Assembly (NCBI GenBank): GCA_963841915.1
Contig: CAWJEN010000006.1
Coordinates: 1,312,001-1,376,000, forward strand
DNA: 64,000 bases
Source of the DNA: an uncultured Planctomycetota bacterium
Lineage (GTDB): Bacteria > Planctomycetota > Phycisphaerae > Tepidisphaerales > Tepidisphaeraceae
Direction: 5' to 3'
Shown: piece after piece, positions 15,235 through 46,446 of the stretch
Layout of the letters: each line of letters starts with the position of its first letter
Position numbering within the stretch: the first letter of the stretch is position 1
Notes under the pieces: model-generated
Told to the model about the DNA's origin: nothing
Databases searched by the model: none
Seen by the model: the letters and a program-made list of their open reading frames with translations, nothing else
Position numbers and translations under genes: made by a program

Positions 15235-15472
15235 GGATACCTTTGGAAGTTCCAAAGGCATGTTTCCAACTTCAAAGGCATGTTTAGAAGTTCCCAGGGC
15301 ATGTTTGGAAGTTCCCCGGGGCATGTTTCCAAGACGTAAGGGCATGTTTCCAAAGCTCAAGGGCATCTTTGAAAGCCGTCAGGGCATGTTTTGAAGTTAA
15401 GGGCATGACGTCAGAGGCTCAAGGGCATCTTTGGAAGTCTTACGGGCATCCCAGAACCGTTCAGGGGCATGC
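15235..15472. repeat. tandem array of about 12 degenerate 21-bp units, consensus approx. GGGCATGTTTGGAAGTTCCAA
   Basis: GGCAT at 15257, 15277, 15298, 15320, 15341, 15362, 15383, 15402, 15424, 15445 and 15466 (spacing 19-22, mostly 21), plus a degenerate unit at 15235. Confidence 0.9.
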
Positions 15473-35777: not shown

Positions 35778-35793
35778 TGTTCCACGTGGAACA
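35778..35793. promoter_or_regulatory. parS site 1
   Basis: Perfect palindrome TGTTCCACGTGGAACA, extended to CCGA..TCGG (35774-35797). Confidence 0.85.
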
Positions 35794-35845
35794 TCGGCCG
35801 AGCCTCGATTGCCGTACGTGGCGAGGGTTTCTCACGCTCGCCGAA

Positions 35846-35861
35846 TGTTCCACGTGGAACA
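35846..35861. promoter_or_regulatory. parS site 2
   Basis: Identical TGTTCCACGTGGAACA starting 68 bp after site 1. Confidence 0.85.
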
Positions 35862-38968: not shown

Positions 38969-42572
<3,604 letters not shown>

Positions 42573-42617: not shown

Positions 42618-43661
42618 ATGCCCGGGACCATGACGCCTGCCGACACGCTGCGCACCGGCAGCCTGCTGACCATTGCCGCCCTCCTGGCGCTGGCGGCGAT
42701 GCACTTGCTGGCCGACGTGCTCGTGCCGTTCGTTCTGGCGGCGTTCGGGGCGATGCTGCTCAACCCGCTCGTCGACGCGCTGATCCGCCGCTACCGCTGG
42801 CCGCGACCGGTGGCGGTCGGGGCGACGTTCCTCACCGGCACGCTGCTGCTGACGAGCATCATCTACGCAGTCGCCTCACCGGCGGCCGGCGCGGCAGAAA
42901 GCCTGTTCGAATACGGCAGAAGCCTTGAGAAAAGCGTGGCCAACGGCCTGGCCAACCTGCCCTTCGACCTGCCGCCCGCTTGGGAAGCCGAGGCGTACAC
43001 CTGGGCGAGCGATTTCGAGCGGTCTCAGCTGTTGCCCTACATCGGCGCGGCGGGTGGCGGCGTGCTCTCGATGCTTAGCGACGCCGGACTCATTCTCGTC
43101 TTTCTGCTGTTTCTTCTGCTGGGCCGCGGGGACCGGCCGGTACCGGCCGAGTCGACACGCGGCCGCATCGAGCGACGTGTGCAGGCTTATCTTGCCGTCA
43201 CGCTCGCCGTCAGCGCCGCCACGGGACTGCTCGTCGGTTTCTCGCTCTGGATCCTGGGCGTGCGACTGGCGTGGGTCTTCGGCGCCGCCGCCTTTGTGCT
43301 CAACTTCATTCCCGTCGTCGGCTCGGCGCTGGCGACGCTCCTGCCGATCCCGTTCATCCTCTTCGGCCAGGAGTTGTCGACGCCCGTCATCGTCGCCGCG
43401 ATCGGCGTACCGGCGGCGATTCAATTCGTGCTGGGCAACATCCTGGCGCCCAAGCTGCTCGGCGACGCGCTGCAGTTGTCACCGGTAGCTGTCATGCTCG
43501 GCCTCATCCTGCTCGGAGCGATCTGGGGGTTGCCGGGCATGGTCCTGTCGACGCCATTGCTGAGCGTGTTCGCCATTGCCGTCGATCGCTCTGCTGAGGG
43601 CGTGCCGATGCTCCGCCCGCTGGGCGACTGGCTCGCAGGCCGAACTGCAAGAGCGGCTTAG
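42618..43661 (+). CDS. AI-2E family transporter
   Basis: Multi-TM; LNFIPVVGS, QFVLGNILAPKLLG..LQLSP, WGLPGMVLSTPL. Confidence 0.92.
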   Translation: MPGTMTPADTLRTGSLLTIAALLALAAMHLLADVLVPFVLAAFGAMLLNPLVDALIRRYRWPRPVAVGATFLTGTLLLTSIIYAVASPAAGAAESLFEYGRSLEKSVANGLANLPFDLPPAWEAEAYTWASDFERSQLLPYIGAAGGGVLSMLSDAGLILVFLLFLLLGRGDRPVPAESTRGRIERRVQAYLAVTLAVSAATGLLVGFSLWILGVRLAWVFGAAAFVLNFIPVVGSALATLLPIPFILFGQELSTPVIVAAIGVPAAIQFVLGNILAPKLLGDALQLSPVAVMLGLILLGAIWGLPGMVLSTPLLSVFAIAVDRSAEGVPMLRPLGDWLAGRTARAA

Positions 43662-43838: not shown

Positions 43839-45002
43839 GTGGTGAACCGACCGCCCCGTGCCCGCACCGCTTCCATGCCACGTCGAGCCGCACCATCCGC
43901 CGCCTCCGCCGCAAAGGCCGCCCCTAACACAGGACGGCATCGGCACCACATCGACGTCGAAACCGATGAGCCCGAGGTCCACGTCTCGATCGGCCAACGC
44001 CCCGCCGCGGCCGTGCCGGGTGGGTTCGCCAAGTTCTTCAACCGCGTCATCGACAATGGCTTGTGGTCGCAAATGCCCGACGCGGCGCGAACCGTCTACC
44101 TGCCGCTCGTTCGCCTTGCCGACGGCAGCGGGCGCGGGCCGATGCGGGCGCGATGCGGCCTGGCCGGACTCATCAAGCACACCGGCCTCAGCCGCTCGAG
44201 CGTCAAGCGGGGGCTGCGCGCGCTGCAGGATCTGCGACTGATCGTCGTCGTCAGCCAGGGCGGCGTCGGGGCCGATGGCGTCAACCGGACCAACGTTTAC
44301 GAACTGCTGGTTCCCGAGCCGGCGGATGTCACATCTGTGACATCCGCACCCACAGGGTCGGTCCAGCAGCGGACCCCCTCCCGGTCCAAGGCTGAACCGG
44401 CAGCCGGTCCGACCGCGGCCACACCGCCGGGTCAGCGACAGGCCGGAACCGGGGCCACAGGCAGACCCCTTCTAAGAGGCTCTTCCCAAACTCATAACCC
44501 AGAGGCGAGCGGGGGCCAGGTGGCTGCGCCTGGAGAGAGCACGGAGGCCGACGCGTTGGCCGAGCGGTTCGCCGCCTTCGAGTCCGACGCCGGTGACAAC
44601 GGCCGACTGGTCGCGATGCTCGGCCGCTGGGGTATCGGCGAGTCCGACGCGTCCCGGCACCTTGCCACCTTCGGCCGCCCTGCCGTGATCAAGGCGCTCG
44701 ACGATGCCCGCGACCTGCACGCCAAGGGCAAGCTTCGCAGCCCGAGCGGCTTCATCGCGTGGCGGTTGAACGAACTGGCACCGGCCGAGAAGCCGGCACC
44801 CGAACCGGCCGCGCCCGTCGCCCCGCCGACGGCCGACGGCGATATCATCGACGAACTCGCCGACGACGTGCTCGATCGGTTGGCCGCCTCGGTCCGCGCG
44901 CGGTACGCGGCCGACGCGTCGATGATCCGTTTGCTCACGAAGAAGCCGCCACGTCAGTCGCCGCTGATGCGTGCGGAGGTTGAGGCGTTGTTAAAGGGGT
45001 GA
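43839..45002 (+). CDS. winged-HTH protein resembling phage/plasmid replication initiators
   Basis: N-terminal ARTVYLPL...GLAGLIKHTGLSRSSVKRGLRALQDLRLI...TNVYEL; low-complexity linker; C-terminal LRSPSGFIAWRL motif. Confidence 0.7.
   Translation: MVNRPPRARTASMPRRAAPSAASAAKAAPNTGRHRHHIDVETDEPEVHVSIGQRPAAAVPGGFAKFFNRVIDNGLWSQMPDAARTVYLPLVRLADGSGRGPMRARCGLAGLIKHTGLSRSSVKRGLRALQDLRLIVVVSQGGVGADGVNRTNVYELLVPEPADVTSVTSAPTGSVQQRTPSRSKAEPAAGPTAATPPGQRQAGTGATGRPLLRGSSQTHNPEASGGQVAAPGESTEADALAERFAAFESDAGDNGRLVAMLGRWGIGESDASRHLATFGRPAVIKALDDARDLHAKGKLRSPSGFIAWRLNELAPAEKPAPEPAAPVAPPTADGDIIDELADDVLDRLAASVRARYAADASMIRLLTKKPPRQSPLMRAEVEALLKG
44322..44469. repeat. 26-bp palindrome followed by five 23-bp-period iteron-like repeats inside the HTH gene
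   Basis: GCGGATGTCACA-tc-TGTGACATCCGC (44322-44347); CGGTCC/CGGTCC/CGGTCC/CGGGTC/GGGGCC at 44359, 44382, 44405, 44428 and 44451. Confidence 0.6.
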
Positions 45003-45005
45003 GCT

Positions 45006-45160
45006 CGAAGAAACGCGAAGGCGCTAAAGGGCGAGGTCGGAGTGAAGTTCAGATGGAGCGTGAAGATGGTCCAGAAGCCGCGTCACAACCGTGACGCGGC
45101 TTCTGGGTCCTCTTCGATTTCTGACCTTCGCTCCGTCTTCGCGCCTTCGCGATTCTGGCG
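45006..45160. repeat. long imperfect hairpin with an inner perfect stem; probable terminator or REP-like element
   Basis: Inner CCAGAAGCCGCGTCAC-aacc-GTGACGCGGCTTCTGG (45071-45106); outer arms CGCGAAGGCGC..GCGAGGTC and GACCTTCGC..GCGCCTTCGCG. Confidence 0.7.
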
Positions 45161-45171
45161 AAGACGCATAC

Positions 45172-46176
45172 TCAAGCCGCGGCAGCGGTGGCCATTTCGT
45201 CTTGCTTCTGGGCCATCTGATCCCGCAGGCGGGCGATGATCGACGAGTGCATCTGGCTGACGCGCGACTCGCTGAGGTCGAGCGTCGCACCGATTTCCTT
45301 CATCGTCATCTCTTCGAAGTAGTAGAGCGTGACGATGAGTCGTTCGGCCCGGCTCAGGCCCTTTTCCATGAGCTGCTTGAGGTCTTTCCTCTGCATCTCA
45401 CGGACGGGGTTGTCGGTGTTTCGGTCTTCGAGAACGTCGATCTCGCGGACGTCCTTGTTCGAGTCGGTCTCGTACCACTTGCGGTTGAGGCTGACAACGC
45501 CGGTGGCTTGGGCGTCCTTGGAGATCTTCTCGAACTCCTCCATGTCGACTTCCATCTTGTCGGCCAGCTCTTCGCGCGTGGGCTGGCGGCCGAGCGAGAC
45601 TTCGAGGGCCTTTGTGGCGGTGTCGAGCTTGTGCGCGCGGCTGCGGACGAGACGCGGCACCCAGTCCATGCTGCGAAGCTCGTCGAGCATCGCACCTTGC
45701 ACGCGGCGGGCGCAGAAGGTTTCGAACTTGACGTCGACGTCGAACTTGAACTGATCGATCGCGTCCATCAGGCCGAAGATGCCGGCGCTGATGAGGTCCT
45801 CGATGTCGACTTCATTGGGAAGTTTGGCATAGACCCGGTCGGCGTTGAAGCGGACCAGATGGAGGTAAGCCTCCATGAGGATGTTGCGACATTGCTCGTC
45901 GCCGCTGGCCTGGTAGTGAATCCAGACACCGGCAAGGTCCTGGCGGTCCGTGCGGACGCGGATGCCGGGCGGCAGGTCGTCGACGAGCGGGAGCAGCGAC
46001 GCGGCCAGGTCGCGCTGGGCGGTCGTCGGGATGGCGCGGAGCGAGCGAACGCGGCCGCGATCATCGCGGAACGGCTTTTCGTTCTTCTCGGCGGGCGTGT
46101 CGCGACGCACAGTGTTACCTGAGCCGGCTTGCGTCGGGCGGGTGCGTCGCGGCGTGGCGGTGGCAGTGGATGACAT
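45172..46176 (-). CDS. fliA: RNA polymerase sigma-28 factor FliA/WhiG
   Basis: DLISAGIFGLMDAI..F....VKFETF...RVQGAMLDELRSMDWVPR, LYYFEEMTMKEIG..LSESRVSQMH. Confidence 0.96.
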   Translation of the reverse strand: MSSTATATPRRTRPTQAGSGNTVRRDTPAEKNEKPFRDDRGRVRSLRAIPTTAQRDLAASLLPLVDDLPPGIRVRTDRQDLAGVWIHYQASGDEQCRNILMEAYLHLVRFNADRVYAKLPNEVDIEDLISAGIFGLMDAIDQFKFDVDVKFETFCARRVQGAMLDELRSMDWVPRLVRSRAHKLDTATKALEVSLGRQPTREELADKMEVDMEEFEKISKDAQATGVVSLNRKWYETDSNKDVREIDVLEDRNTDNPVREMQRKDLKQLMEKGLSRAERLIVTLYYFEEMTMKEIGATLDLSESRVSQMHSSIIARLRDQMAQKQDEMATAAAA

Positions 46177-46446
46177 GAAGTCTCCCGGTCCGTGGGAACC
46201 TCGTAACGAGGTCGAAGGCGCCGCTTGAGCGGCAAGAAGCAAAACCGGCGGATCCATCCGCAGCGGCCGTGTGCCAGTGTACCGAAGTCAACCGCAACGC
46301 CAAGTCCTACGCGGGGGAAAACTGCGGGTTCGATAACACCATGCCTCTCAAGGCTGGCAACGCCGCGGCTAACGGACGACTCGTGACAAGCTGTAAGATT
46401 CTGCTGTAGATGCCGTGGATCGTTTGCCGAATGGCGCGGAAAACGC

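Follow-up and report, generated by a model that had tools for sequence, protein, structure and literature searches.

An initiator gene of phage type that stands alone among housekeeping genes and carries an origin-like repeat structure within its own coding sequence raises the question of whether it marks an origin of chromosome replication. Here, such a locus was analyzed in a window of 64,000 nucleotides, corresponding to positions 1,312,001-1,376,000 of contig C6 in G000, a 3.63-Mb genome in six contigs that is 93.8% complete. A preliminary description of the window had proposed a domesticated initiator that may define an alternative chromosomal or chromid origin. The gene and the conserved parts of its product are the following.

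43875..45002, plus strand: initiator A, an O-like replication initiator gene of 375 aa (P0001), from the open reading frame, homologues, PHROGs and viral folds
43935..44312, plus strand: N-terminal conserved segment and winged-helix domain, residues 21-146, from alignment, structure search and a dimer model
44544..44777, plus strand: residues 224-301, a C-terminal domain of helical type that carries the SPSGF/NPGGF motif, from alignment
44841..44996, plus strand: C-terminal helical subdomain, conserved and family-specific, residues 323-374, from alignment

The reading frame is open and has in-frame starts at 43839 (GTG) and 43875 (ATG), the latter agreeing with the N-termini of the homologues; a search for a sigma-70 promoter gave no match. 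Besides P0001 itself, 27 homologues were found by protein search, in which a linker that varies joins an N-terminal segment and a winged helix to two helical parts at the C-terminus. In PHROGs, P0001 matched six families, five of them of replication initiators or O-like proteins and the sixth DnaD-like, with phrog_1032 (E = 1.4e-7) and phrog_678, “replication initiation O-like” (E = 1.2e-6), as the best matches, and the viral fold matches include “lambda GpO N-terminal” (E = 2.6e-6). The O-type initiator with a winged-helix N-terminal domain that had been proposed is borne out by these matches, and P0001 can be classed, from its sequence, as a lambda-O-like winged-helix initiator. For the N-terminal domain, the top row among PDB structures was a plasmid initiator (4pta, “MDR initiator”; Z 8.5, rmsd 3.3, 89 aligned), the score of which was tied with other, unrelated winged helices. 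The N-termini of DnaB/DnaD proteins were matched as well (5wtn, Z 7.9; 2vn2, Z 6.8), many transcription factors scoring about equally, and Foldseek gave no PDB match at E <= 0.001. The C-terminal domain showed no clear fold match, the DnaD domain 2i5u appearing at rank 43 (Z 4.2, rmsd 2.6, 58 aligned); a role of residues 224-301 in strand opening or helicase recruitment is inferred. Against the 25-bit cut-off of Pfam HTH_36 (PF13730), P0001 reached 18 bits and its homologues 16.6-25.6, one of five being above the cut-off, and NCBIfam holds no family for initiator A or for initiator B, a second O-like gene described below. Furthermore, a homodimer was predicted for residues 15-150 through residues 21-38 and 47-60, with an ipSAE of 0.79 compared with 0.00 for the best control; the mark applied was attained by 20 out of 30 solved pairs and by one out of 23 single chains. 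The runs shared at least 88% of their contacts, and pLDDT was no lower than 79; the score may stem from resemblance to solved dimers.

The linker between the two halves of the protein is encoded by the repeat structure.

44322..44347, unstranded: 26-bp palindrome, specific to G000 and out of register with the array
44357..44471, unstranded: five 23-bp units, predicted iterons, from autocorrelation, codon shuffles, genome profile and symmetry
44472..44501, plus strand: AT-rich, A-rich tract from a conserved YTAAGA motif, predicted unwinding element, from AT content in 13 genes

The units start at 44359, 44382, 44405, 44428 and 44451, and each holds a 16-bp imperfect palindrome (cores at 44360, 44383, 44406, 44429 and 44452, with arm symmetry of 5, 4, 3, 2 and 3 of 5). 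The autocorrelation of 44351-44470 is highest at lags 23 (0.48) and 46 (0.51), which confirms the five units and the exact 23-bp period reported previously. Of the 97-bp windows in the genome, 0.011% attain a lag-23 identity of at least 0.48, and neither TRF nor a second standard repeat finder reported the array as a repeat family. As the period is not a multiple of three, selection at the DNA level had been deduced. That deduction holds through conservation in homologues and not through the G000 gene alone, in which the 23-bp period is no better than in synonymous-codon shuffles (p = 0.355). Across 28 loci and 17 lags not divisible by three, with relatives that are not independent of one another, lag 23 scored highest in 16 of the 19 close homologues and in 3 of the 9 distant homologues, so that orthologues do keep the period; ten of those 16 beat their codon shuffles at p <= 0.02. 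Moreover, with a profile of the units derived from 12 other genomes, the G000 array scored 44.5 bits and nothing elsewhere exceeded 15.4 bits (7.27 million positions), making the array the sole strong match in the 3.6-Mb genome.

The AT-richer patch expected after the units was found in its place. The 30 bp from 44472 contain 53% AT compared with 30% for the gene, which puts them in the top 0.7% of the gene’s 30-mers, and in 12 of 13 genes the tract following the YTAAGA-type anchor belongs to the AT-richest 3.5%. Iterons and AT tract are kept across genera. The internal iterons expected of an O-type gene are present as an array, as a cross-genome profile and with an adjacent AT tract. The 26-bp palindrome exists as described, with perfect 12-bp arms and a 2-nt centre; it was rejected as part of the origin, since it is absent from the linkers of the homologues and palindromes with 12-bp arms fill 159 rows genome-wide, overlaps included. 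It probably lies outside the conserved origin.

The product might instead act in trans, as a DnaD/DnaB-like primosome helper or a self-regulating transcription factor, with autoregulatory repeats and an incidental co-location with the skew switch discussed below. The resemblance of the N-terminal domain to DnaB/DnaD N-termini and, about equally, to transcription factors is compatible with such a role, and phage helicase loaders have repeatedly been domesticated as trans factors (PMC5109545). However, the repeat profile detects no second array in the genome, the conserved AT-rich tract adjoins the array, and a switch lies at the gene in four of four genomes and at least two neighbourhoods, which renders a trans factor improbable.

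The surroundings of the gene were then considered for signs of a mobile element.

42618..43661, plus strand: AI-2E transporter gene, upstream neighbour kept in L012, L014 and L015 (context only)
45172..46257, minus strand: gene for a FliA-type sigma factor at the start of a flagellar cluster, downstream neighbour kept in L012 and L014 (context only)

With these two neighbours, the earlier statement that no integrase, phage or plasmid genes flank initiator A is upheld, and no dnaA, integrase or plasmid gene stands next to it. Synteny is kept in part: L012 and L014 have both the transporter and the flagellar neighbours, L015 has the transporter, whereas other cellular genes adjoin the orthologue at L013, L016, L017 and in G192 and G374. 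Between the convergent initiator and fliA genes, 45009-45156 holds two intergenic inverted repeats (45062-45115, and arms at 45009/45138), possibly a terminator or a REP-like element. Relatives of initiator A were found neither in IMG/VR nor among 50,697 phage records or 72,556 plasmid records. The adjacent P/DnaC-like loader and the phage context that would be expected of a lambdoid prophage module are absent, and so are, beside initiator A, the par genes that would be expected of a plasmid or chromid; a linked partition cassette occurs only with the paralogues in G229. The contig also carries EF-Tu, rpoC, dnaB, 16S rRNA and both dnaA genes, with core genes along its whole length. The chromid was rejected on this account, so that of the alternative chromosomal or chromid origin proposed earlier the chromosomal part is retained, agreeing with the skew switches in all four long-contig genomes.

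Among 141 family genomes, a broad profile matched 54, including 29 of the 72 that are near-complete; for 20 of the matched genomes E was below 1e-45. In a sample of the phylum it matched 21 of 301 genomes. Within the genus, the initiator is present in all five genomes. A tree of 21 rows groups by genus (g24, g26 and g246, and g1 with one g222 row inside). Together with the housekeeping neighbours and the lack of phage or plasmid matches, this distribution supports, at the level of sequence, the domesticated initiator that the preliminary description had supposed, resident on the chromosome and inherited along genus lines. In G229, two paralogues adjoin plasmid-type ParA cassettes, from which a plasmid or plasmid-prophage ancestry is inferred. 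A third paralogue in G000, at C5:679,551-680,225, is missing the N-terminal domain. A plasmid-type parA with a small gene is located at C5:463,557-464,688; the G229 counterparts of the C5 initiator and of this parA are adjacent, the initiator being full-length, and the G367 counterpart of the parA maps beside dnaA1.

Closeness to parS and gyrB had also been put forward in support of an origin.

35778..35861, unstranded: pair of parS-type sites (35778 and 35846), one of 65 clusters genome-wide

Both sites exist, with no specificity for the locus: the exact parS-type 14-mer occurs at 153 sites in 65 clusters on five of six contigs, and closeness to it was discarded as origin evidence. In most clusters, two sites are separated by 65-68 or 73-76 bp, and a third is frequently present at a distance of 1-2.5 kb; the clusters are unusually evenly spaced (mean gap 53 kb; CV 0.53 compared with 0.87 at random, 0 of 5,000 simulations). 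Counts were 0, 0, 0 and 2 in four congeners and 0-2 in most family genomes, with 71 in G337, 29 in G042 and 20 in G205. These dispersed sites may represent chromosome-wide ParB loading or a repeat family. As for gyrB, it lies at 38969-41788 as reported; in G367 it falls in the block at 1,154-1,174 kb, approximately 590 kb from the orthologue, and this linkage was likewise discarded.

The window had been described as free of dnaA. None adjoins initiator A, and two full-length, intact DnaA genes are found elsewhere on C6, at 372 and 511 kb (L001:955-2466 and L002:919-2598). No cluster of at least three DnaA boxes with at most one mismatch was detected in G000, a search that a divergent box would escape, and a candidate DnaA oriC at C5:752 kb was rejected since both boxes lie inside coding sequence. 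Directly downstream of dnaA1 is initiator B, an O-like protein of 596 aa (C6:368,954-370,744; L021:8955-10745, minus strand). The protein has a winged-helix-like repeat in two copies, and the gene holds a separate repeat array together with an A-rich tract. It is located at the strongest skew minimum of G000, its orthologue in G229 adjoins a ParA cassette, and its array is not recognised by the unit profile of initiator A.

Skew was measured raw and, with strand correction, at four-fold sites. It can be observed that the minima of G000 lie at about C6:352 kb, C6:1,335-1,350 kb and C5:425-470 kb; a further one, at about C5:700-735 kb, is weak. Initiator A is at C6:1,356 kb and the minimum at 1,350 kb. 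Its left and right flanks differ with p = 6e-5 (four-fold) and 2e-4 (raw), for flank ends that were chosen by eye after viewing the curve. Four-fold models with at least four change points put one at 1,350 kb (90% interval 1,090-1,375 kb), the BIC-best model has only two change points and omits this switch, and when the flanks are fixed at 300 kb, the site falls among the highest-ranking 13-16% of positions. The switch is weaker than the strongest one in the genome, which is found next to initiator B and dnaA1 at C6:350-370 kb (p = 1e-7 to 1e-11). Between the two initiators, the skew peak is at 870 kb (raw) or 795 kb (four-fold), compared with a midpoint at 863 kb, the intervals for this peak (terminus) being wide (785-1,150 kb), with upper ends at 1,120-1,150 kb. 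The minimum at C5:425-470 kb is clear; no initiator was detected there by profile, repeat scan or eye, nor any DnaA-box cluster, and the RPA family (PF10134) was not found in G000. Co-orientation with the predicted forks amounts to 734 of 1,480 genes and 10 of 26 tRNAs, which is no bias, and a single-origin model gives none either (694 of 1,480 genes). The whole of C6 has almost no gene-strand bias under any origin model. Walks of KOPS-type motifs, with dips at about 400 and 1,350-1,400 kb, were left uncounted, as they comprise only 107 sites and share the same G bias, and a search for dif-like motifs found nothing.

Near the window, the ends of contig C2 match C6 at 1,303.8 and 1,342 kb, and C2 looks, from its sequence, like an alternative haplotype of a variable island at C6:1,304-1,342 kb, so that the assembly contains strain variation in this neighbourhood. 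The version of this island in window 1-30000 contains part of a type III restriction endonuclease, a helicase of SNF2/PLD type and ORFs resembling methylases, with apparent frameshifts in several, and at 15242-15391 a 21-bp repeat array adjoins a small ORF; similar AT-rich repeats occur at C5:499.1 kb.

In the relatives, skew was calculated from 20-kb blocks sampled in part (40 in G367, 61 in G192, 20 in G374, the latter drawn from 0.6-2.3 Mb), with dense sampling in G192 and G374 centred on the orthologue of initiator A. The contigs extend over 2.52 Mb in G367 (the same locus as L014, counted once) and 7.19 Mb in G192. A cumulative GC-skew comparison had been advised at the outset, and it places a negative-to-positive switch spanning 300-700 kb at the orthologue in all four genomes with long contigs, in at least two different gene neighbourhoods; the switch is strong in G367 and G192 and weaker in G000 and G374. 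In G367, skew is negative over approximately 1.03-1.74 Mb and positive from 1.78 Mb, with the orthologue at 1,751 kb. The change falls between 1,741 and 1,784 kb (9 of 11 left blocks negative, 10 of 11 right blocks positive, p = 3-4e-4) and is the only significant one on the 2.5-Mb contig. In the densely sampled stretch of G192 (6.0-7.2 Mb), the orthologue lies at 6.707 Mb, and raw and four-fold cumulative minima both occur in the orthologue’s own block, with p = 7e-4 at four-fold sites (9 of 11 and 8 of 9 blocks) and 0.009 raw. A second V at 3.96-4.07 Mb, based on few blocks (p = 0.036), lies near parB/parS (3.999 Mb) and by a second O-like gene with a 23-bp period at 4.079 Mb. The skew peaks of this genome, at approximately 5.1-5.3 and 1.5-1.7 Mb, compare with midpoints at 5.39 and 1.80 Mb. 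In G374, the four-fold minimum is again in the orthologue’s block (4 of 5 and 4 of 4 blocks, p = 0.008 and 0.02), the raw skew not being significant (p = 0.21 and 0.06).

Minima of this kind can stem from rearrangement or misassembly (PMC4403523; PMC7111523). Separate replicons, each with its own origin, could have been joined into one contig, and the similarity of C2 to an alternative haplotype of C6:1,304-1,342 kb would fit this reading. Against such an artefact, the pattern repeats in independent assemblies, two of which (G192 and G374) are single contigs, and core genes are spread across the whole contig; an artefact is most unlikely, and even so the initiator A gene would mark an origin.

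The switch may also be a relic of a plasmid, chromid or prophage replicon that was integrated long ago and is now silent or a backup. The ParA-linked relatives in G229, the N-truncated paralogue at C5:679.5 kb, the patchy distribution in the family and the silenced second origin of V. cholerae NSCV2 (PMC6284228) would all suit a dormant origin. However, the gene order of G000 and G367 is scrambled, the blocks of G367 being scattered across G000, so that a fossil skew pattern should have been erased; the switch has stayed with the initiator gene through this extensive shuffling. Moreover, iterons and AT tract are kept across genera and the skew peaks are close to the midpoints between origins. 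A fossil is accordingly regarded as unlikely.

A second origin is shown or implied on three of the long contigs. At the implied second minimum of G367, near 0.2 Mb, no initiator was detected, and a second origin at its parB (about 215 kb) was rejected, as there is neither a significant switch (p = 0.11-0.36) nor an initiator match. The dnaA genes were used as controls, and five of the six tested (both in G367, both in G192 and dnaA2 in G000) are without a four-fold switch. For dnaA1 of G367, a raw p of 0.025 was reached only when a 700-kb flank takes in the initiator’s switch. The sixth control, dnaA1 of G000, is confounded with the adjoining initiator B; since dnaA1 of G367 has neither an initiator B match nor a switch, initiator B is favoured as the cause.

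These controls, the lack of a DnaA-box cluster in G000 and the single significant switch on the G367 contig invite the proposal that initiator A took over from DnaA as the sole active origin, with the other minima arising from inversions. It is contradicted by the strongest switch of G000, which lies at 350-370 kb by initiator B and dnaA1, by the second long V of G192 near 4.0 Mb and by the very uneven replichores that would result in G367, and is thought very unlikely.

The anatomy of the locus, its conservation, its residence on the chromosome and its co-location with the skew switch are direct observations. With a lambda-O-like protein, a conserved array with its AT tract and a skew switch in four genomes, a self-contained origin appears likely, and we hold with fair confidence that the locus is a working or recently working origin. 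The fuller proposal, a domesticated, self-contained, bidirectional origin that shares its chromosome with one or more further origins, is judged moderately probable from these sequence features. If the protein works like lambda O, its N-terminal domain would attach as dimers to the five palindromic units, and the AT-rich tract alongside would be opened by the complex. Host DnaB helicase would then be recruited and loaded with host DciA. DciA is present in G000, and a search for IstB/DnaC-type ATPases matched only the two DnaA genes, with no phage P or DnaC-type loader, so that helicase loading would depend on host factors. After firing, forks from neighbouring origins in simultaneous use would meet near the midpoint. 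As the profile of initiator A is blind to the array of initiator B, the two origins would be controlled separately.

In multi-origin archaeal chromosomes, each origin has its own adjacent initiator gene, the initiators being Orc1/Cdc6. A more speculative extension, which we regard as doubtful, is that part of the family replicates in this archaeal manner from several simultaneous O-like origins with their own iterons, DnaA being minor or non-initiating, and that the parS pairs may organise such a chromosome in G000. Second origins are favoured by the second minima on C6 of G000 and in G192, each of which coincides with, or lies close to, a further O-like gene that has repeats of its own. Against the proposal of an origin working beside another stand the patchy distribution, most family genomes having no close homologue, and, in G000, the weak switch, the absence of gene co-orientation and the two intact DnaA proteins.

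All studied bacterial chromosomes are held to follow a single-origin rule, added origins being costly or silenced (PMC7174701), and the existence of natural multi-origin bacterial chromosomes has been called an open question (PMC4403523); as a proven natural case, a fusion at strain level was found in V. cholerae (PMC6284228). No prior report of an origin like the present one was found in the open-access literature, judged from listings, and a class-wide genomics paper mentions neither dnaA nor the chromosome. The locus narrows the question to a named gene with a cis element of 145 bp and to peak positions that can be predicted exactly for several genomes, and the module could provide a replicon for planctomycete genetics, in which foreign replicons failed (bioRxiv 10.1101/2024.01.22.576637).

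In the O genes of lambda and Stx phages the origin lies within the initiator gene (PMC7466680), and initiator A shares with ori-lambda the mid-gene position, an array of four to six iterons that are imperfect inverted repeats, the AT-rich tract behind this array and the N-terminal DNA-binding domain. It differs in its 23-bp units with a GGT(C/T)C-N6-G(A/G)ACC-type core, compared with 19-bp iterons, and in having no P/DnaC gene or prophage, being inherited along the genus line among housekeeping genes. With the staphylococcal RepA_N initiator (4pta) and the N-domains of Firmicute DnaB/DnaD it has the winged-helix fold in common (Z 8.5, 7.9 and 6.8); these scores tie with unrelated winged helices, and the C-domain reaches Z 4.2 with DnaD. 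Planctomycete plasmid replicons have iteron-type initiators near type I partition genes, sometimes with iterons in the gene (bioRxiv 10.1101/2024.01.22.576637); those initiators are mostly of the RPA family (PF10134), with HTH_36 named once in that preprint, whereas initiator A is not accompanied by a par cassette and gave no match among plasmids. As with the domesticated dnaC/dnaI loaders, phage replication genes have become resident on a chromosome, but there the loader replaced dciA (PMC5109545), while in G000 initiator and cis origin were kept and dciA retained. Multi-origin archaea such as Haloferax have several origins per chromosome, some from integrated mobile elements or a plasmid (PMC7174701); unlike archaea with Orc1/Cdc6, G000 is bacterial and has O-like proteins and two DnaA paralogues. 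The nearest natural precedent in the sources consulted is V. cholerae NSCV1, in which two origin types, one plasmid-like, likewise share one natural chromosome through a strain-level fusion of two known chromosomes (PMC6284228). In contrast with NSCV1, the present module is O-like, occurs in several genera, outlasts the shuffling of gene order and is accompanied by long-range skew.
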